A DNA stretch of 64,000 nt. Origin: Escherichia coli (GTDB taxonomy: Bacteria; Pseudomonadota; Gammaproteobacteria; Enterobacterales; Enterobacteriaceae). The position numbers and the translations under genes were made by a program. Below are positions 6,253-34,716 of the stretch, piece after piece. A model generated the notes under the pieces. That model was not told where the DNA came from. It did no database searches and saw only the letters and a list, made by a program, of their open reading frames with translations. The stretch is from NCBI RefSeq assembly GCF_003018255.1, contig NZ_CP027440.1; one strand, 5' to 3'. Positions within the stretch are counted from its first letter, which is position 1; each line of letters opens with the position of its first letter.

Positions 6253-7105
6253 TCATCCGTTAGGGATTTATGAAAAAGCGCTGGCGAAAGATCTCTCCTG
6301 GCCGGAGCGGCTGGTGCTGGCAAAAAGCTGTGGCTTTGATTTTGTCGAAATGTCGGTGGATGAAACCGACGAACGGCTCTCACGTCTTGACTGGAGCGCC
6401 GCACAACGTGCTTCGCTGGTCACTGCGATGATCGAAACGGGTGTTGGGATCCCGTCGATGTGCCTGTCCGCACATCGTCGCTTTCCTTTTGGTAGCCGTG
6501 ACGAGGCAGTGCGCGAACGGGCGCGGGAAATCATGAGTAAAGCGATTCGCCTGGCGCGCGATCTCGGCATTCGCACCATCCAGCTGGCGGGCTACGACGT
6601 CTATTACGAAGACCACGACGAAGGCACCCGGCAACGTTTTGCTGAAGGGCTGGCGTGGACAGTCGAACAGGCGGCGGCATCACAAGTAATGCTGGCGGTG
6701 GAGATTATGGATACTGCGTTTATGAACTCCATCAGCAAATGGAAAAAGTGGGACGAGATGCTCGCCTCGCCGTGGTTCACCGTCTACCCGGACGTCGGCA
6801 ACCTCAGCGCCTGGGGCAATGATGTTCCCGCCGAACTGAAACTGGGCATTGACCGTATCGCCGCGATCCACCTGAAAGATACTCAACCAGTCACCGAGCA
6901 AAGCCCCGGACAGTTCCGTGATGTGCCGTTTGGCGAAGGCTGCGTCGATTTCGTTGGCATCTTCAAAACGCTGCATGAACTGAACTATCGCGGTTCTTTC
7001 CTGATTGAGATGTGGACCGAAAAAGCCAAAGAGCCGGTGCTGGAGATTATTCAGGCGCGGCGCTGGATTGAAGCGCGTATGCAGGAGGCAGGTTTTATAT
7101 GTTAG
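6239..7105 (+). CDS. sgbU: L-ribulose-5-phosphate 3-epimerase (xylose-isomerase-like TIM barrel)
   Basis: The ORF-track frame 6155..7105 contains …[12 protein letters not shown]…, matching SgbU/UlaE N-termini; the true start is probably a GTG near 6239 overlapping the sgbH end. Exact start uncertain. Confidence 0.8.
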
Positions 7106-7794
7106 AGCAACTGAAAGCCGACGTGCTGGCGGCAAATCTGGCACTTCCCGCTCACCATCTGGTGACGTTCACCTGGGGCAATGTCAGCGCGGTAGACGAA
7201 GCGCGGCAATGGATGGTAATCAAACCTTCCGGCGTCGAGTACGACGTGATGACCGCCGACGATATGGTGGTGGTTGAGATAGCCAGCGGTAAGGTGGTGG
7301 AAGGCAGCAAAAAGCCCTCGTCCGACACGCCAACGCATCTGGCGCTTTACCGTCGCTATGCCGAAATCGGTGGCATTGTGCATACCCACTCGCGCCACGC
7401 CACCATCTGGTCGCAGGCCGGGCTGGATCTCCCCGCCTGGGGCACCACGCACGCCGATTATTTCTATGGTGCCATCCCCTGCACGCGACAGATGACCGCA
7501 GAGGAGATTAACGGCGAATATGAATATCAGACCGGCGAAGTGATCATTGAAACTTTCGAAGAACGCGGCAGGAGTCCGGCACAAATCCCGGCGGTGCTGG
7601 TGCATTCTCACGGCCCGTTCGCCTGGGGAAAAAATGCCGCCGATGCGGTGCATAATGCCGTAGTGCTGGAAGAGTGCGCCTATATGGGCCTGTTCTCGCG
7701 CCAGCTTGCGCCGCAGCTCCCTGCGATGCAAAACGAACTGTTAGATAAGCACTACCTGCGTAAGCATGGGGCCAATGCCTATTACGGGCAGTAA
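7099..7794 (+). CDS. sgbE: L-ribulose-5-phosphate 4-epimerase (class II aldolase/adducin fold)
   Basis: 231 aa, AraD-like sequence, last gene of the operon. Confidence 0.85.
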
Positions 7795-7825: not shown

Positions 7826-8641
7826 CTACGAATTGATATGTTCCTTGCTGTAACGTCGCTTCCACGCAGCTGGCGTTAAACCGGTGTGTTTGCGAAAAAT
7901 CTGTCGGAAATAGCCAACGTCATTAAACCCGCACAACGCAGCCACTTCAGTGAGCGATCGCGCTTCGCTAATTAACAGCTTTTCGGCTTCGCGCACTCGC
8001 TGGCGATGAATTGCTTCTGTTAACGTCAGATGAAACACCCGCCGGTAGACGCGCCCAAGATAATCGGCATTGCAGTACAGCTCGCGGGCTAAAAGCGCCG
8101 TAGAAAGCGGGCGATGATATTGCGTGCGAATCAGTTTCTGCGCTTTCCAGGCAAGCGTGGTACCTGCGGCATCGGCCTGTTCATCAAGACGCGCGTCACG
8201 GGTGAGCTGCTGCAAAATCAGCAGCACAATAAACTCCAGCGCCGGAGTGCGTTGATGCTTTTCCTGTTCGCTTAAGAACTGGCGAAACAGGGCCACCAGC
8301 GCCTGCGGATCGGCAACCTTCGTTTGTTGCGGCACGCTAAGATGAGTGAGCCAGCGCGGGTCGCTATCCGGCGCTTTAACCTCAAAATGCAGCCAGTAAA
8401 ATTTGAGATCGGCGGGAAAATCCTCTACCCCAACATGCTGTCGGTTCGGCCAGAGTAATAAACTCTCTCCCGCATCGACCAGAAATATCCGCTCTTCTTC
8501 CTGAATCGTTAATCGACCTTTTTCGACAAAGATAATTTCCCATGACTCCAGCCGCCTTGCCGGGTGCCTCCCTACGCCACGGGAAATAAATAATCCACCA
8601 TTTTGCACTTTAATCGGTAACGTCATGGATAATTCGAGCAT
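7826..8641 (-). CDS. AraC/XylS-family transcriptional regulator
   Basis: 271 aa; C-terminal AraC-type HTH region (…EAIHRQRVREAEKLLISEARSLTEVAALCGFNDVGYFRQIFRKHTGLTPAAWKRR), N-terminal cupin-like sensor; divergent from the symporter gene. Confidence 0.8.
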   Translation of the reverse strand: MLELSMTLPIKVQNGGLFISRGVGRHPARRLESWEIIFVEKGRLTIQEEERIFLVDAGESLLLWPNRQHVGVEDFPADLKFYWLHFEVKAPDSDPRWLTHLSVPQQTKVADPQALVALFRQFLSEQEKHQRTPALEFIVLLILQQLTRDARLDEQADAAGTTLAWKAQKLIRTQYHRPLSTALLARELYCNADYLGRVYRRVFHLTLTEAIHRQRVREAEKLLISEARSLTEVAALCGFNDVGYFRQIFRKHTGLTPAAWKRRYSKEHINS

Positions 8642-8866
8642 TGATATGTAATTTCCCGCTTATTCATTAATGATTAAACACATTACCTTTTGATTATTAA
8701 TCAAAAACATTAATTTCACCTGATCCATTTCACACTTTTAAATTCAGGTCGGAATCGTCACCTTTTTTTACTCTTTTCTCGCCTTGTTGATATTCCCGTT
8801 CACGGCAGAATTAATCAGGTCATTGCAATAAAACTAAAAATTGCTCCCTATTCACGAGGAATATCT

Positions 8867-10267
8867 ATGACCTCTACACCGATTACTGCCGCTGATATCG
8901 CTAAAGGTAAAATTGACGATGCGTTATCTGTACGGGAAAAAATAGGCTACGGCCTGGGTGACGCAGGCGGCACCGTAATAACTTGCCTGATCATGAACTT
9001 TCTCACCTTTTTCTACACCGACGTTTTTGGCTTAACTCCGGCGCTGGTCGGCACGCTGTTTATTGCACTGCGCGTGTTTGATGCCATCTCCGACCCGGTG
9101 ATGGGCGTCATTGCCGACCGGACGCAAAGTCGCTGGGGGCGCTTTCGTCCGTGGCAGTTATGGATTGCCATTCCCATCGGCATTATCGGCATCCTGACGT
9201 TCACCGTGCCAGATGCCAGCATGGGAGTAAAAATCGCCTGGGCGTTCGGTACTTACCTGCTCCTTTCAGTCGGTTATACCGCCATCAACGTACCGTACTG
9301 CGCGCTGATCAACACCATGACCACCCGCCACAATGAAGTGATCTCCTGCCAGTCCTGGCGATTCGTTCTCTGCGGCGTAGCGGGATTTCTGGTTTCGGTT
9401 GGCCTGCCGTGGATGGTGGATCTCTTCGGTCAGGGTAATGCCGCGCGCGGCTATCAACTGGGCGTCGGCGTGCTGTGCGCCATTGCCGTGGTGATGTTCC
9501 TGTGCTGTTTCTTCTGGGTTCGTGAACGGGTGCCACTCTCCACAATGGGGAAATTTACCCTGCGCGAACATCTTGCCGGGCTGCGGAACAACGACCAACT
9601 GCTGCTGATGCTGGTCATGTCTTTCCTGCTGATTAACGTCTTTAATATTCGCGGCGGTGGGTATATGTACTTCATTACCTACGTCTTACAAGGCAGTACG
9701 GGCTACACGTCGCTGTTCTTCACCATGGTCACCTTCGCCTCCATTATCGGCTCGGTGATTGTCAGCCCGTTAACGCGGCGTTTCGATACCGTCAAAATTT
9801 ACTACTACACCAACCTGCTCCTCGCTGCGCTGGCGGTGTTGATGTGGTTCCTGCCTTCTGGCCCGGCTTATCAAACGCTGTGGCTGGCGGTGATCCTCGG
9901 TAATGGCGTGATTCTTGGCTTCACATTGCCACTGCACTTCTCATTGATGGCCTTTGCCGATGACTACGGCGAGTGGAAAACCCGCGTACGTTCTTCCGGC
10001 ATGAACTTCGCCTTCAATCTGTTTTTCATCAAGCTGGCATGGGCCTCCAGCGCCGGGATCATCAGCCTGCTGTTTATTTTTGTCGCCTACCAGCCAGGCG
10101 TGGAAAACCAGACCACCAGTTCGCTTGGCGGGATCACGGCGATGGAAACATTACTGCCTGCGCTATTCCACCTGCTGCTGGCAGGGGCGATCCGCTTTTG
10201 CAAACTCAATAACCCTATGATGTCACGCATTGCTAGCGACCTGCGTCAGCGTCATGTACAGCCTTAA
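8867..10267 (+). CDS. GPH-family (MelB-like) glycoside-pentoside-hexuronide:cation symporter
   Basis: 466 aa, 12-TM-like; GPH signature [13 protein letters not shown] near the N-terminus; GAGGA RBS before the ATG. Confidence 0.8.
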
Positions 10268-10277
10268 GGAGCACAAG

Positions 10278-12257
10278 ATGAACATTTCGGAAGTCGATCT
10301 GCATAAACTGACGGTCAGCGATCCGTTCCTCGGTCAGTACCAACAACTGGTCCGCGATGTGGTGATTCCTTATCAGTGGGACGCCTTGAACGATCGTATC
10401 CCAGAAGCGGAACCCAGCCATGCGATTGAAAACTTTCGCATTGCCGCAGGACTGCAAGACGGTGAATTTTACGGGATGGTGTTTCAGGACAGCGACGTCG
10501 CCAAATGGCTGGAAGCGGTAGCCTGGTCGCTGTGCCAGAAGCCGGATGCCGAACTGGAAAAAACCGCTGACGAGGTGATTGAACTGATCGCCTCCGCCCA
10601 GTGCGAAGATGGCTATCTCAATGCTTACTTTACGGTAAAAGCGCCCGAAGAACGCTGGAGCAATCTGGCGGAGTGTCATGAACTTTACTGCGCCGGTCAT
10701 CTGATTGAAGCCGGAGTCGCCTTCTTCCAGGCCACGGGAAAACGGCGCTTGCTGGAAGTGGTTTGCCGTCTGGCCGATCATATCGACAGCGTATTTGGTC
10801 CAGGTGAAAGTAAGTTACACGGTTATCCTGGTCACCCGGAAATTGAACTGGCACTAATGCGCCTGTATGAAGTGACCGAAGAGCCGCGCTACCTGGCGCT
10901 GACGAACTATTTTGTCGAACAGCGTGGTGCGCAACCGCACTATTACGACCAGGAATATGAAAAGCGCGGGCAGACCTCGCACTGGCACACCTACGGCCCG
11001 GCGTGGATGGTGAAAGATAAAGCCTACAGCCAAGCGCATTTGCCCATCGCACAGCAACAAACCGCCATCGGACATACAGTACGCTTTGTATATCTGATGA
11101 CTGGCGTCGCACATCTCGCGCGTTTAAGTCACGATGAAAGCAAGCGTCAGGATTGCCTGCGGCTGTGGAACAATATGGCCCAGCGTCAGTTATATATTAC
11201 CGGCGGCATTGGCTCACAAAGCAGCGGCGAAGCGTTCAGCAGCGATTACGATCTGCCGAATGACACGGTTTACGCCGAAAGTTGTGCTTCCATCGGCCTG
11301 ATGATGTTCGCCCGGCGAATGCTGGAAATGGAAGGCGACAGTCAATATGCCGATGTGATGGAGCGCGCACTGTACAACACTGTGCTCGGCGGCATGGCGC
11401 TGGATGGCAAACATTTCTTCTACGTTAATCCGCTGGAAGTGCATCCAAAAACGTTAAAATTCAACCATATCTACGATCACGTTAAGCCGATCCGCCAGCG
11501 TTGGTTTGGTTGCGCTTGTTGTCCGCCAAATATCGCCCGCGTGCTAACCTCGATTGGTCATTATCTCTACACGCCGCGTGAAGATGCGTTGTATATCAAC
11601 ATCTACGCAGGAAACAGCATGGAAGTGCCGGTAGAAAATGGCACGCTGCGTCTGCGGGTTAGCGGAAACTATCCGTGGCAGGAACAGGTGACAATTGCGG
11701 TTGAATCGCCCCAGCCGGTGCGTCATACGCTGGCTTTACGTCTGCCGGACTGGTGCACACAGCCGCAGATCATATTGAATGGGGAAGAGGTCGAGCAGGA
11801 TATTCGTAAAGGGTATTTGCACATTACCCGCGAATGGCAGGAGGGCGACACGCTGAATCTGACTTTGCCAATGCCGGTACGTCGCGTTTACGGTAACCCT
11901 CTGGTGCGTCACGTCGCCGGAAAAGTGGCGATTCAGCGCGGCCCGCTGGTGTATTGCCTGGAACAGGCCGACAACGGCGAGTCACTGCATAATCTGTGGC
12001 TGCCCGCCGATGCGCCATTTACGACATTTGAAGGTAAGGGATTGTTCCGCCATAAGATCTTAATCCAGGCACCGGGTTATCGGTATGAACAGAGCAATCC
12101 AGAGCAGCAACCGCTGTGGCATTACGACAGCGCGCCAGCCAAACGCCAGCCGCAAACCCTGACCTTTATCCCGTGGTTTAGCTGGGCCAACCGGGGTGAA
12201 GGCGAAATGCGGATCTGGGTGAATGAGGAAAAGCATTGCCATCCGGAGGTTGGATAA
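10278..12257 (+). CDS. GH127-like (DUF1680) glycoside hydrolase, putative beta-L-arabinofuranosidase
   Basis: About 659 aa from the ATG at 10278 (AGGAGC RBS); cysteine cluster WFGCACCPPN resembles the Cys/Zn catalytic site of GH127 HypBA1-type enzymes; no signal peptide. Confidence 0.65.
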   Translation: MNISEVDLHKLTVSDPFLGQYQQLVRDVVIPYQWDALNDRIPEAEPSHAIENFRIAAGLQDGEFYGMVFQDSDVAKWLEAVAWSLCQKPDAELEKTADEVIELIASAQCEDGYLNAYFTVKAPEERWSNLAECHELYCAGHLIEAGVAFFQATGKRRLLEVVCRLADHIDSVFGPGESKLHGYPGHPEIELALMRLYEVTEEPRYLALTNYFVEQRGAQPHYYDQEYEKRGQTSHWHTYGPAWMVKDKAYSQAHLPIAQQQTAIGHTVRFVYLMTGVAHLARLSHDESKRQDCLRLWNNMAQRQLYITGGIGSQSSGEAFSSDYDLPNDTVYAESCASIGLMMFARRMLEMEGDSQYADVMERALYNTVLGGMALDGKHFFYVNPLEVHPKTLKFNHIYDHVKPIRQRWFGCACCPPNIARVLTSIGHYLYTPREDALYINIYAGNSMEVPVENGTLRLRVSGNYPWQEQVTIAVESPQPVRHTLALRLPDWCTQPQIILNGEEVEQDIRKGYLHITREWQEGDTLNLTLPMPVRRVYGNPLVRHVAGKVAIQRGPLVYCLEQADNGESLHNLWLPADAPFTTFEGKGLFRHKILIQAPGYRYEQSNPEQQPLWHYDSAPAKRQPQTLTFIPWFSWANRGEGEMRIWVNEEKHCHPEVG

Positions 12258-12261
12258 GGCG

Positions 12262-12375
12262 CTCGCGCCGCATCCAACGTAGGGAGCACATTGCCTGATG
12301 CGACGCTTAACGTGTCTTATCAGGCCCACGAGTCGGTGCGAGAGCGTAGGCCAGCCGCACCGACATCCACCGGTA
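12262..12375. repeat. REP-like palindromic element between convergent genes
   Basis: tgcctgatgcgacgcttaacgtgtcttatcaggcc-type imperfect palindrome, typical REP/IRU sequence; likely transcript-end structure. Confidence 0.4.
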
Positions 12376-12377
12376 AA

Positions 12378-13118
12378 TTAAAAACGCCAGCTCACGCCGG
12401 TGACAAAGGTAAAACTCTCATTACGATCAATCATCGGGCTGTCGGTAATCTCTTCCGGCAGCTCGCTGTATCCGGCGCTCGCCATCAATACGACGTGCTC
12501 TCCTATCGGGTATTTTGCCGTCAGGCTGACATAAGGCACCCAGGCATCCTGCGCGGAATAACTTGCCAGACCGCTACGACGGGACTCACTCTCTGAAATG
12601 CCATAGTAATAGTCACTGAAATTCTCGTCATAATAGAGAACGCCCAGCGCAGGTGTCAGCGACAGGCGACCTATCTGCATTTTGTGGAATACCGATAGCT
12701 CCCCCACCCAGCCGTTGCTGTTATCCAGAACGTCCGCAGCCGCAGAGGCTTTCACGGTTCCCCAACGCTCGTGGTGATACCAGGCAACCCCCGCCATAGC
12801 CGTACTATCACGCTTATCAAGCTGTTGCATGGCATAATCGTCATTATCGGTAGGGTCAAATTCCAGCGGCATCCAGGATGCGGTCAGGCTAAGTTCATTT
12901 TTTTCACTTTGCGACAGAATAAAACCTAACGTGGTCTGACGAACATAAAAAGTATCACCTTCATAACTAATCAGCGGAATTGCCTTTGTATTTTCATTAT
13001 AACCGCGATAAGGCGATTCATTATAAGCCGCACCAGCACCAATGGATAATTCAGAAGCAGTTGCGCTTGCCATAAAAGGCAACGCAAATAACGCCACAAT
13101 ATTGCGGTTAATTAACAT
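12378..13118 (-). CDS. yiaT: MipA/OmpV-family outer-membrane protein
   Basis: 246 aa, signal peptide (…ALPFMASATA), aromatic C-terminus (…SWRF) typical of OM beta-barrels; matches YiaT as recalled. Confidence 0.8.
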   Translation of the reverse strand: MLINRNIVALFALPFMASATASELSIGAGAAYNESPYRGYNENTKAIPLISYEGDTFYVRQTTLGFILSQSEKNELSLTASWMPLEFDPTDNDDYAMQQLDKRDSTAMAGVAWYHHERWGTVKASAAADVLDNSNGWVGELSVFHKMQIGRLSLTPALGVLYYDENFSDYYYGISESESRRSGLASYSAQDAWVPYVSLTAKYPIGEHVVLMASAGYSELPEEITDSPMIDRNESFTFVTGVSWRF

Positions 13119-32483: not shown

Positions 32484-32659
32484 GTGATTCAGATCACAAA
32501 GATCCAACAAACCACCAAAACAAAAATGTGACATTAGTCACATTTAAATGCCATTTTTAGCGAAAATCGCCGTCTTGTTGCTTTTTTACACAAGCATTTT
32601 GTGATGAGCATCACGTCAATTACCTCTCTACCCCCTATATTTATGTGACCCATATCACA
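32484..32659. promoter_or_regulatory. Cluster of four CRP-like palindromes (TGTGA-N6-TCACA type) in the mtlA upstream region
   Basis: tgtgattcagatcaca (32484..32499), tgtgacattagtcaca (32527..32542), tgtgatgagcatcac (about 32600..32614), tgtgacccatatcaca (32644..32659); the mtl promoter is known to be strongly CRP-dependent. Confidence 0.5.
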
Positions 32660-32802: not shown

Positions 32803-34716
32803 ATGTCATCCGATATTAAGATCAAAGTGCAAAGCTTTGGTCGTTTCCTCAGCAACATGGTGATGCCAAATATCGGCGCGTTTATCGCGTGGGGTATCAT
32901 CACCGCGTTATTTATTCCAACAGGGTGGTTACCGAACGAGACGCTGGCGAAGCTGGTCGGGCCGATGATCACTTATCTCCTGCCGCTGCTGATCGGTTAT
33001 ACCGGTGGTAAGCTGGTAGGCGGCGAACGTGGCGGCGTAGTCGGTGCCATCACCACCATGGGCGTTATCGTCGGCGCAGACATGCCGATGTTCCTCGGTT
33101 CTATGATTGCAGGTCCGCTGGGCGGCTGGTGCATTAAGCACTTCGACCGCTGGGTAGACGGTAAGATCAAATCCGGTTTTGAGATGCTGGTGAATAACTT
33201 CTCCGCAGGCATCATCGGGATGATCCTCGCTATTCTGGCATTCCTCGGCATTGGCCCGATTGTTGAAGCCCTGTCCAAAATGCTGGCTGCGGGCGTTAAC
33301 TTCATGGTTGTCCATGACATGCTGCCGCTGGCGTCTATCTTTGTTGAACCGGCGAAAATCCTGTTCCTCAACAACGCCATTAACCACGGTATCTTCTCGC
33401 CGCTGGGCATTCAGCAGTCCCATGAATTGGGTAAATCCATCTTCTTCCTGATTGAAGCTAACCCAGGTCCAGGTATGGGCGTGCTGCTGGCGTACATGTT
33501 CTTTGGTCGTGGCAGTGCTAAACAATCTGCGGGCGGTGCGGCAATCATCCACTTCCTGGGTGGTATCCACGAAATTTACTTCCCGTATGTGTTGATGAAT
33601 CCGCGTCTGATCCTGGCCGTTATCCTCGGCGGTATGACTGGCGTGTTCACGCTGACTATCCTGGGCGGTGGTCTGGTTTCTCCGGCATCTCCGGGTTCTA
33701 TCCTTGCTGTACTGGCGATGACACCAAAAGGTGCTTATTTCGCTAACATCGCAGGTGTGTGTGCGGCGATGGCTGTCTCCTTCGTTGTCTCTGCCATTCT
33801 GCTGAAAACCAGCAAAGTGAAAGAAGAAGATGATATTGAAGCAGCAACTCGTCGTATGCAGGACATGAAAGCTGAGTCTAAAGGTGCGTCTCCGCTGTCT
33901 GCGGGCGATGTGACTAACGACCTGAGCCACGTACGTAAAATCATCGTTGCCTGTGACGCCGGTATGGGTTCCAGTGCGATGGGCGCAGGTGTGCTGCGTA
34001 AGAAAATTCAGGATGCAGGTCTGTCGCAGATTTCGGTCACTAACAGCGCGATCAACAACCTGCCGCCAGATGTGGACCTGGTCATCACTCACCGTGACCT
34101 GACCGAACGCGCTATGCGCCAGGTTCCGCAGGCACAGCATATTTCGCTGACCAACTTCCTCGACAGCGGCTTGTACACCAGCCTGACCGAACGTCTGGTT
34201 GCTGCCCAGCGCCATACTGAAAACGAAGTAAAAGTGAAAGACAGTCTGAAAGACAGCTTTGACGATTCCAGTGCTAACCTGTTCAAGCTAGGCGCGGAGA
34301 ACATCTTCCTCGGTCGCAAAGCGGCCACCAAAGAAGAAGCGATTCGTTTTGCTGGCGAGCAGCTGGTGAAAGGCGGTTACGTTGAGCCAGAATACGTTCA
34401 GGCGATGCTGGATCGTGAAAAACTGACCCCGACTTATCTGGGTGAGTCTATCGCGGTGCCACACGGTACGGTTGAAGCAAAAGATCGCGTACTGAAAACG
34501 GGCGTGGTGTTCTGCCAGTACCCGGAAGGCGTGCGCTTCGGTGAAGAAGAAGATGACATTGCCCGTCTGGTGATTGGTATTGCTGCCCGTAACAACGAGC
34601 ACATTCAGGTTATCACCAGCCTGACCAATGCACTGGATGATGAATCCGTCATCGAGCGTCTGGCACACACCACCAGCGTGGATGAAGTGCTGGAACTGCT
34701 GGCAGGTCGTAAGTAA
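32803..34716 (+). CDS. mtlA: PTS mannitol-specific EIICBA component
   Basis: 637 aa; membrane EIIC domain followed by EIIB and EIIA domains. Confidence 0.9.
   Translation: MSSDIKIKVQSFGRFLSNMVMPNIGAFIAWGIITALFIPTGWLPNETLAKLVGPMITYLLPLLIGYTGGKLVGGERGGVVGAITTMGVIVGADMPMFLGSMIAGPLGGWCIKHFDRWVDGKIKSGFEMLVNNFSAGIIGMILAILAFLGIGPIVEALSKMLAAGVNFMVVHDMLPLASIFVEPAKILFLNNAINHGIFSPLGIQQSHELGKSIFFLIEANPGPGMGVLLAYMFFGRGSAKQSAGGAAIIHFLGGIHEIYFPYVLMNPRLILAVILGGMTGVFTLTILGGGLVSPASPGSILAVLAMTPKGAYFANIAGVCAAMAVSFVVSAILLKTSKVKEEDDIEAATRRMQDMKAESKGASPLSAGDVTNDLSHVRKIIVACDAGMGSSAMGAGVLRKKIQDAGLSQISVTNSAINNLPPDVDLVITHRDLTERAMRQVPQAQHISLTNFLDSGLYTSLTERLVAAQRHTENEVKVKDSLKDSFDDSSANLFKLGAENIFLGRKAATKEEAIRFAGEQLVKGGYVEPEYVQAMLDREKLTPTYLGESIAVPHGTVEAKDRVLKTGVVFCQYPEGVRFGEEEDDIARLVIGIAARNNEHIQVITSLTNALDDESVIERLAHTTSVDEVLELLAGRK

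Follow-up and report, generated by a model that had tools for sequence, protein, structure and literature searches.

The interval between sgbE and yiaT spans 4583 bp in the window analysed here (64,000 nucleotides of Escherichia coli DNA) but 346 bp in K-12, which raises the question of what its genes do and whether they were gained by some strains or lost by others. The initial annotation placed yiaT almost directly after sgbE in K-12, as the 346-bp distance bears out, and described a compact unit of regulator, transporter, and hydrolase genes. All three open reading frames were recovered, and they constitute a real, intact operon (Table 1). The GH127 gene starts 10 nt past the stop codon of the symporter gene, and the two are therefore read as one operon. 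A longer GH127 reading frame would start with TTG at 10230; the start at 10278 is the one used in RefSeq and supported by alignment to homologues. The stop codon of the GH127 gene is overlapped by a REP/BIME element (67.8 bits in the Rfam scan, where the gathering score is 59.5), which is likely to be the 3' end or a stabiliser of the operon transcript.

Table 1. Positions of genes, candidate control elements, and K-12 deletions in the window
Feature	Position	Strand	Length or sequence	Basis
AraC/XylS-family regulator gene	7826-8641	minus	271 aa	ORF and Pfam
Divergent control region	8642-8866		225 bp	Alignment of 23 species
Candidate regulator-gene promoter element	8690-8700		TTGATTATTAA (minus strand TTAATAATCAA)	Inferred; kept in at least 17 of 23 species
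CRP-like site	8719-8734	plus	CCTGATCCATTTCACA	GATC, TCACA, and the following TTT near-invariant in the 23-species alignment
Near-invariant 44-bp block	8746-8789	plus	AGGTCGGAATCGTCACCTTTTTTTACTCTTTTCTCGCCTTGTTG	Conservation; ends in weak -35 TTGTTG
Candidate -10 hexamer	8807-8812	plus	CAGAAT	17 bp downstream of TTGTTG, inside conserved GCAGAATTAAT
GPH/MFS_2 symporter gene	8867-10267	plus	466 aa	ORF and Pfam/NCBIfam
GH127 cysteine glycosidase gene	10278-12257	plus	659 aa from ATG	Pfam and PDB matches
REP/BIME-type palindromic element	12248-12326	plus		Rfam RF02564 naRNA4
Deletion 1 in K-12	7930-11950		4021 bp	K-12 locus compared with the window by BLAST; junction sequences
Deletion 2 in K-12	12141-12356		~216 bp	Bounded by direct repeat GCCAGCC(GCA)

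The HMM scans agreed with the families first proposed for the three proteins. The divergently transcribed regulator belongs to the AraC/XylS family, having a C-terminal helix-turn-helix (Pfam HTH_18, residues 184-263, 4e-19) and an N-terminal AraC-type cupin ligand domain (AraC_binding, residues 26-132, 2.5e-9). Its top NCBIfam model is AraC itself, yet the score of 61.5 bits, far below the cut-off of 208, shows that it is not an AraC equivalog. The transporter, initially called MelB-like, does contain the 13-residue signature quoted for it and belongs to the GPH family (TC 2.A.2): TIGR00792 gph scored 332.4 bits over residues 25-462 (cut-off 231.35), Pfam MFS_2 matched residues 27-448 (6.8e-73), and the alignment to the MelB structures was full-length (5e-37). 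FDAISDP in the symporter lies opposite WDAINDP in MelB, with the acidic cation-site residues Asp55 and Asp59 kept, and the loop 2-3 motif is present, its 12 residues aligning to ATRSRWGKFKPW of MelB. Two other cation-site residues, Asn58 and Asp124 in MelB, are replaced with serine and asparagine, respectively. Since the scores fall under the YagG, YicJ, MelB, and UidB cut-offs (YagG, 354 against 610 bits; PRK11462, 323 against 836; MelB, 207 against 456; glucuronide transporter, 191 against 528), the symporter represents a separate GPH subgroup.

The 659-residue protein fell inside GH127/DUF1680, with the catalytic (PF07944, 3.8e-111), middle (PF20736, 1.3e-23), and C-terminal (PF20737, 3.6e-25) domains all matched; it contains GCACCPPN and has no signal peptide, in keeping with the cytoplasmic location proposed at the outset. 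The Geobacillus GH127 beta-L-arabinofuranosidase (PDB 4QJY) aligned over 630 residues with 54% identity (1e-234), and HypBA1 over residues 11-648 with 44% identity (2.4e-151). HypBA1 residues C415, H142, H194, H270, and Y386 are identical in the E. coli protein, and we take the three histidines and the tyrosine to be sugar-binding residues. In the zinc-site alignment suggested by the initial annotation, E318, E334, C336, C414, and C415 correspond to E322, E338, C340, C417, and C418 of HypBA1, respectively. In HypBA1, Cys417 is the nucleophile, Glu322 is the acid/base, and the zinc site is (Cys)3-Glu, made up of Cys340, Cys417, Cys418, and Glu338 (PMC8106489). By alignment, the full predicted set of cysteine nucleophile and Zn(Cys3-Glu) site is thus present. 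The identity to two enzymes named beta-L-arabinofuranosidases points to the same activity (EC 3.2.1.185) in the E. coli protein, although 54% identity to 4QJY leaves the aglycone and linkage of the predicted substrate unfixed. The operon probably serves the scavenging of plant beta-L-arabinofuranosides.

The control region between the divergent genes is AT-rich (GC about 40% versus about 55% in the flanks) and contains blocks conserved across genera. The candidate promoter element of the regulator gene shares the string TTGATTATT with the real araC-araBAD intergenic region, where it occurs just upstream of the CRP site. The CRP-like pattern by itself is at chance level in the window (23 matches against 25.7 expected), and the site has a poor distal half with two mismatches to the core; it is the cross-genus conservation of GATC-N4-TCACA-N-TTT, and not the pattern, that suggests a candidate CRP site. 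Its centre precedes the candidate -10 by 80.5 bp, compared with 79.5 bp in the real ParaBAD. The 44-bp block is a putative binding site of an AraC-type activator, within which no clear direct repeat was resolved. A generic sigma-70 scan of the intergenic region predicted no promoter and did not call the candidate -10, as expected for an activator-dependent promoter.

A survey of the sgbE-yiaT junction in 5426 complete E. coli genomes showed that the cassette is not universal in the species: 2313 genomes (about 43%) carry it, 2461 (about 45%) have the K-12 scar, and 481 (about 9%) have a larger sgbE-aldB deletion. The same three genes occur in the same order in about 70 enterobacterial species. 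The order regulator(-)/GPH(+)/GH127(+) was kept in every non-Bradyrhizobium locus with sequence spanning all three gene positions (about 70 of 80 species loci) except one, in which no GPH match above the filter was found. Citrobacter, Enterobacter, Lelliottia, Pseudocitrobacter, and Huaxiibacter also have the cassette at the sgbE-yiaT junction; several genera retain the sgbE and yiaT-yiaU flanks, and in Salmonella diarizonae the cassette is visible on the sgbE side. The Bradyrhizobium GH127 gene has no GPH or AraC neighbour. Downstream of the Klebsiella michiganensis locus are selB, selA, and a glutathione S-transferase gene, an ordinary chromosomal context. Extra carbohydrate genes adjoining the cassette, sought in the K. 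michiganensis and Bradyrhizobium loci, gave no further substrate clue.

K-12 retains pieces of both end genes, each annotated as a pseudogene. ysaC (b4648) preserves 104 bp from the 3' end of the regulator gene (7826-7929), and ysaD (b4649) is a decayed internal piece of the GH127 gene, which over its 190 bp shows 89% identity to the intact gene, with 21 substitutions (11%) and zero indels. The junction sequences revealed no obvious microhomology at the ends of deletion 1. An origin of ysaD in another species was considered and rejected: its best matches are Escherichia alleles (87-89%), the other genera reaching at most 83% over short stretches (46-179 nt), and ysaD therefore decayed in place. 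In K-12, the ysaC/ysaD site is used as a neutral locus for insertions (PMC12361893).

Because the cassette shares its junction in other genera and K-12 keeps these remnants, the K-12 state is a derived deletion; the locus is an old enterobacterial one, and deletion removed the cassette from K-12 and from about half of E. coli strains. The initial annotation had read the block as a strain-variable insertion. Its variability among strains and its absence from K-12 stand, but the insertion itself does not, and a horizontally acquired, strain-specific genomic islet between sgbE and yiaT has next to no chance of being the right explanation. The lack of the cassette in K-12 and in 57% of the complete E. 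coli genomes is what such an event would leave, and a Bradyrhizobium GH127 protein with 72% identity indicates that the gene can cross lineages. Against it stand the shared position in several genera, the ysaC and ysaD remnants, a GC content of 53-56% that matches the flanks, and a dS within E. coli of 0.07-0.16, which is no lower than that of yiaT (0.04), the one flanking core gene measured. The cassette is, moreover, always single-copy and chromosomal in the complete E. coli genomes. No integrase, IS, tRNA, or flanking direct repeat was found among the open reading frames, in the repeat search, which gave just short chance matches, or in the Rfam scan including tRNA models, which gave only the REP-derived element in the window. 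The locus thus shows none of the marks of a genomic island, namely, ancestral absence, mobility, tRNA, or repeat borders, and atypical composition.

A different concern is that the genes, though present, are non-functional in E. coli and heading for the loss seen in K-12. At least two independent deletions of the cassette (the K-12 scar and the Nissle-type sgbE-aldB junction), together with separate deletions and replacements of neighbouring genes, indicate that the region is dispensable in many lineages, and in a few genomes a truncated regulator is annotated only as 'helix-turn-helix domain-containing protein'. We nevertheless regard decay as quite unlikely. Full-length reading frames are annotated in essentially all 2313 carriers, and the three genes are under strong purifying selection, with dN/dS of 0.03-0.11 in comparisons within E. 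coli and across genera alike (regulator, 0.05-0.11; symporter, 0.03-0.07; GH127, 0.03-0.06) and of 0.05-0.07 within E. coli; the K-12 remnant, released from selection, shows its 11% of substitutions by contrast. The GH127 gene is also transcribed in BL21, where it rose 4-5 fold along with lacZ (PMC6561948), the parallel rise being a weak hint of catabolite control.

The architecture might instead serve the uptake and cleavage of another small glycoside, such as a different furanoside, an aceric-acid-type sugar, or a 3,6-anhydro-galactoside, in which case the operon would have nothing to do with beta-L-arabinofuranosides. GH127 is polyspecific, more distant GH127 structures exist (PDB 6EX6, a 'six-hairpin glycosidase', and 5MQO), biochemical data for the enterobacterial GH127 clade were not found in the searchable literature, and the sole NCBIfam match of the E. 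coli protein is aceric acid hydrolase. That match, however, scores less than half its cut-off (451 against 950 bits) and covers only residues 252-649, the two best solved full-length homologues are both named beta-L-arabinofuranosidases, and the presumed sugar-binding histidines and tyrosine of HypBA1 are all kept. A different substrate therefore seems improbable to us, although less so than decay.

Taken as a whole, the best explanation, which we consider reasonably probable, is an ancestral enterobacterial operon for the catabolism of small beta-L-arabinofuranosides that K-12 lost by deletion. Candidate substrates are Araf-beta1,2-Ara or Araf-beta-Hyp from plant hydroxyproline-rich glycoproteins and pectic glycans. 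The glycoside would be imported by the GPH symporter together with a cation and cleaved at its non-reducing beta-L-Araf by the cytoplasmic GH127 enzyme, with Cys414 as the predicted nucleophile and Glu318 as the predicted acid/base, and the freed L-arabinose would enter the AraBAD pathway. The sugar-bound AraC-type protein may activate the promoter of the transporter and hydrolase genes from the 44-bp block beside the weak -35, and cAMP-CRP may assist from the candidate site that precedes the -10 by about 80 bp, in a layout like that of ParaBAD.

The cassette is already annotated in RefSeq and its K-12 scars are already catalogued, and in these respects it is an ordinary accessory locus; what is added here is the correct direction of evolution, by loss and not by gain, together with frequencies in the population and a promoter model that can be tested. 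No functional study, enzyme assay, or growth or induction data for the enterobacterial operon were found in the searchable literature. In a pan-genome study, invasive IBD isolates were reported to be associated with the GH127 gene (PMC11879602), and another report that we considered (PMC5238381) was set aside as it concerns Bacteroides clones. Should the proposed function be correct, a class of plant-derived sugars that K-12 is unable to use would be open to about 40% of E. coli strains, among them O157:H7, O145:H28, and the B/BL21 lineage, which would bear on niche partitioning in the gut and on plant surfaces, on cross-feeding with bifidobacteria, and on K-12-based metabolic models. A more specific proposal, possible but in our view doubtful, is that the operon is a dedicated E. 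coli/Enterobacteriaceae pathway scavenging beta-L-arabinofuranosyl disaccharides or Hyp-arabinosides freed by gut or plant microbes (e.g., by Bifidobacterium GH121), and that diet- or niche-dependent selection keeps the polymorphism of about 43, 45, and 9%. To our knowledge, beta-L-arabinofuranoside uptake has so far been known only with ABC systems, and the dedicated pathway, if true, would be the first to use a GPH-type transporter, and also the first to use an AraC-type sensor, for these compounds. It might also explain the association with the invasive IBD isolates.

Several known systems resemble the cassette in part. The HypBA1 system of Bifidobacterium longum JCM 1217 likewise has an intracellular GH127 enzyme with a cysteine nucleophile, a glutamate acid/base, and Zn(Cys3-Glu), the features predicted for the E. 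coli protein. In B. longum, beta-Ara2 is imported and serves as the substrate of the intracellular GH127 enzyme (PMC8106489, PMC7263609). The import depends on an ABC transporter with a beta-Ara2-binding protein, whereas E. coli has a single GPH symporter. Bifidobacterium also has substrate-releasing extracellular GH121 and GH43 enzymes, whereas the E. coli cassette has an AraC-type regulator and no secreted enzyme and therefore could only scavenge products that others release. Ara127N of Geobacillus stearothermophilus T6 (4QJY, 4QK0) is the closest solved relative, with the same three-domain length, but its host is a Gram-positive thermophile, unlike E. coli. Its setting is a large arabinan-utilisation cluster that includes ABC transporters, in contrast to the three-gene GPH cassette.

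Within E. coli, YicJ-YicI and YagG-YagH each have a GPH carrier gene followed directly by a cytoplasmic glycosidase gene. The carrier-glycosidase logic is the same, and the YagG subfamily is the top NCBIfam model of the symporter, but the glycosidases there are GH31 or GH43 enzymes, whereas the cassette has GH127 plus a dedicated AraC-type regulator. The control region recalls araC-ParaBAD in its divergent AraC-type regulator, the perfect TCACA proximal half of its candidate CRP site, and its putative activator site before a weak -35; it differs in that the regulator is no more than a distant relative of AraC and the half-site sequences are not the same. The counterpart nearest in descent is ysaC/ysaD, the non-functional K-12 remnants of the very cassette whose genes are intact in the window.

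The interval between sgbE and yiaT holds three ORFs, for an AraC-family regulator, a GPH symporter, and a GH127 hydrolase (table below), and both motifs quoted for these proteins in the initial annotation were present. The RefSeq annotation of E. coli JNE23-011 (100% identity over 6.2 kb) lists the same three genes and no others, naming their products AraC family transcriptional regulator, MFS transporter, and glycoside hydrolase family 127 protein. Pfam/NCBIfam searches of the three proteins and structure alignments confirmed the initial gene assignments. The regulator matched Pfam HTH_18 (4e-19) and AraC_binding (2.5e-9); its nearest NCBIfam model is AraC, with a score far under the cut-off. 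The transporter scored 332 bits against TIGR00792 gph (cut-off 231), and MFS_2 spans the whole protein. Since it fell under the cut-offs of the YagG, YicJ-type, MelB, and UidB models, we place it in a GPH subgroup of its own. Its alignment with MelB structures covers the full length. In the cation site, the transporter retains the equivalents of Asp55 and Asp59; Asn58 and Asp124 are replaced with serine and asparagine, respectively.

Features of the cassette, its flanks, and its control region (control-region rows from the 23-species alignment)
Feature	Position	Strand	Remarks
sgbE (araD in PGAP annotation)	7099-7794		cassette flank
AraC-family regulator ORF	7826-8641	minus	271 aa; ORF list
Conserved block TTGATTATTAA	8690-8700
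GATC-N4-TCACA-N-TTT	8722-8738		fits CRP site at 8719-8734, proximal half perfect
Near-invariant 44-bp block	8746-8789		3' end TTGTTG
GCAGAATTAAT	8806-8816		17 bp past TTGTTG; candidate -10 CAGAAT at 8807-8812
GPH symporter ORF	8867-10267	plus	466 aa; ORF list
GH127 ORF	10278-12257	plus	ATG at 10278; 659 aa; ORF list
REP/BIME-type palindromic element	12248-12326	plus	overlaps GH127 stop codon; Rfam naRNA4 RF02564, 67.8 bits (gathering score 59.5)
yiaT	12378-13118	minus	cassette flank

The hydrolase possesses the catalytic, middle, and C-terminal GH127 Pfam domains. The closest solved structures are those of the Geobacillus GH127 beta-L-arabinofuranosidase (4QJY; E = 1e-234, 54% identity) and Bifidobacterium longum HypBA1 (E = 2e-151, 44% identity). 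In HypBA1, Glu322 is the acid/base, Cys417 is the nucleophile, and Glu338, Cys340, Cys417, and Cys418 are the zinc ligands (PMC8106489). The comparison of these sites proposed in the initial annotation showed identity at every catalytic and zinc-ligand position: E318 and C414 of the hydrolase correspond to the acid/base and the nucleophile, and E334, C336, C414, and C415 to the zinc ligands. His142, His194, His270, and Tyr386 of HypBA1, which we take to be its sugar-binding residues, are also identical in the hydrolase. No signal peptide was seen at the N-terminus, indicating that the hydrolase is cytoplasmic, as is HypBA1 (PMC8106489). The GH127 proteins of six Bradyrhizobium loci (L073-L077 and L080) share 72% identity with the E. 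coli protein, as close as some Enterobacterales, and no GPH or AraC neighbor of their genes was seen. In L073, the gene lies beside those for an S9-peptidase-like protein and a PAS histidine kinase. Transfer between Alpha- and Gammaproteobacteria may lie behind this.

The initial annotation regarded the cassette as an insertion at the sgbE-yiaT junction. Alignment of the K-12 locus with the window gave three collinear pieces (to 7929; 11951-12140, with 89% identity; and from about 12351), showing two gaps in K-12, of 4021 bp and about 216 bp. What is left of the cassette there is the 3'-terminal 104 bp of the regulator gene and, from within the GH127 gene, a piece of 190 bp. These remnants are pseudogenes ysaC (b4648) and ysaD (b4649), respectively, in the curated MG1655 record, and the order yiaS-ysaC...ysaD-yiaT is given in a paper where the site serves as a neutral locus for integration (PMC12361893). 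The cassette itself already carries RefSeq annotation, and the scars in K-12 have been catalogued. The second gap is flanked by the direct repeat GCCAGCC(GCA), and this deletion takes out the REP/BIME element. ysaD (2431-2620 of the K-12 locus) differs from the window by 21 substitutions and no indels in the 190 bp, and the adjoining flanks are 96-99% identical. The closest matches of the fragment are Escherichia alleles, which argues that it decayed in place.

With each species represented by a single genome, a scan found GH127 orthologs across Enterobacteriaceae and relatives (72-97% identity). In tblastn synteny comparisons, the three genes showed the same order, orientation, and spacing in every non-Bradyrhizobium locus with sequence over all three positions, except one (L070), in which a GPH match passing the filter was absent. 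The full context, lyxK-sgbH-sgbU-sgbE, the cassette, and yiaT-yiaU(-yiaV), was found in Citrobacter, Enterobacter, Lelliottia, Pseudocitrobacter, and Huaxiibacter, and the sgbE side was matched in Salmonella diarizonae, Klebsiella, Raoultella, and Kosakonia/Phytobacter. The ORF list, repeat search, and Rfam scan of the window gave no mobility gene or tRNA at the cassette and no repeats bounding it, and its GC content is similar to that of the flanks. The K-12 remnants, the shared context in other genera, the absent signs of mobility, and the flank-like GC content led us to conclude that the cassette is ancestral at this junction and that the K-12 state is a derived deletion, and to reject the insertion reading. 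In the Escherichia whittamii representative (L003, 4660-5552), sgbU is directly followed by the AraC-type regulator gene with no sgbE match past the filter; sgbE may have been lost or truncated there.

The strain variability expected in the initial annotation was borne out in a survey of 5426 complete E. coli genomes. The cassette interior was present in 2313 (42.6%), always chromosomal and single-copy with 96.6-100% identity. It is not near-universal in the species and is missing from K-12 itself. The B/BL21 lineage and O157:H7 are among the carriers; O145:H28 and those O157:H7 genomes that were sampled have kept the cassette. The K-12 double-junction scar was found in 2461 genomes (45.4%), and sampled rows were at least 98% identical to K-12, pointing to one old deletion event that later spread or was inherited widely. 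In another 481 (8.9%), sgbE is joined directly to aldB, and the cassette and yiaT-yiaW are missing (Nissle 1917 lineage, L083, 6794-6841). O145:H28 strain 12E115 (L084, 2871-3011) has lost the whole yiaK-sgbE operon, so that a truncated yiaJ-type IclR pseudogene adjoins the regulator gene, an arrangement also noted for O157:H7-type genomes. In EC581 (L085, 9315-11481), yiaT-yiaW have given way to hicAB and a gene for a type I restriction endonuclease. The sgbE-aldB interval is a hot spot of deletion and replacement.

It is unlikely that the genes persist in carriers as a non-functional relic. By the Nei-Gojobori method, dN/dS was 0.03-0.11 for all three genes within E. coli and against E. whittamii, Citrobacter, and Enterobacter. 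In contrast, the K-12 fragment, being unconstrained, carries 11% substitutions, consistent with the within-species dS of 0.07-0.16 (window versus O145:H28). The GH127 gene is also transcribed in BL21, and in one stress transcriptome its level rose 4-5 fold alongside that of lacZ (PMC6561948). In one pan-genome study, it co-segregated with the invasiveness of IBD isolates (PMC11879602). The searched literature yielded no biochemical or genetic characterization of the operon.

The hydrolase gene has a GAG-type ribosome site and begins 10 nt beyond the stop codon of the transporter gene, the two thus forming one operon. Conservation in the divergent intergenic region, aligned from 23 species, suggests a ParaBAD-like promoter in which a CRP site would be followed by an activator site and then a weak -35; transcription would be expected to begin near 8819. 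In the araC-araBAD region, the center of the CRP site TTTGCACGGCGTCACA lies 79.5 bp upstream of the -10 TACTGT, compared with 80.5 bp for the candidate elements of the cassette, and the string TTGATTATT, which precedes that CRP site, also occurs in the cassette control region. The CRP pattern alone showed no excess over chance in the window, and a generic promoter scan called no promoter in the intergenic region. Elsewhere in the window (32483-32659, plus strand), four TGTGA-N6-TCACA cores, three of them perfect and the fourth with one mismatch, are packed within 180 bp immediately upstream of an ORF of 637 aa (32803-34716). The length of this ORF fits MtlA, and the cluster probably represents the multi-CRP promoter already known for mtlADR.

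We propose that the symporter would import a small beta-L-arabinofuranoside, which the cysteine-nucleophile GH127 enzyme would cleave in the cytoplasm to L-arabinose, then catabolized via AraBAD, and an aglycone. The regulator would induce the operon, and CRP would provide catabolite control. As the cassette has no secreted enzyme, its substrates would be products freed by other organisms or plants, for example Araf-beta1,2-Ara released from extensin-type glycoproteins by Bifidobacterium GH121 (PMC8106489, PMC7263609). The HypBA1 cluster employs the same enzyme chemistry but, unlike the cassette, pairs it with an ABC transporter and helper enzymes that are secreted. The closest systems include Geobacillus Ara127N and the GPH-glycosidase pairs of E. 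coli itself, YicJ-YicI and YagG-YagH.
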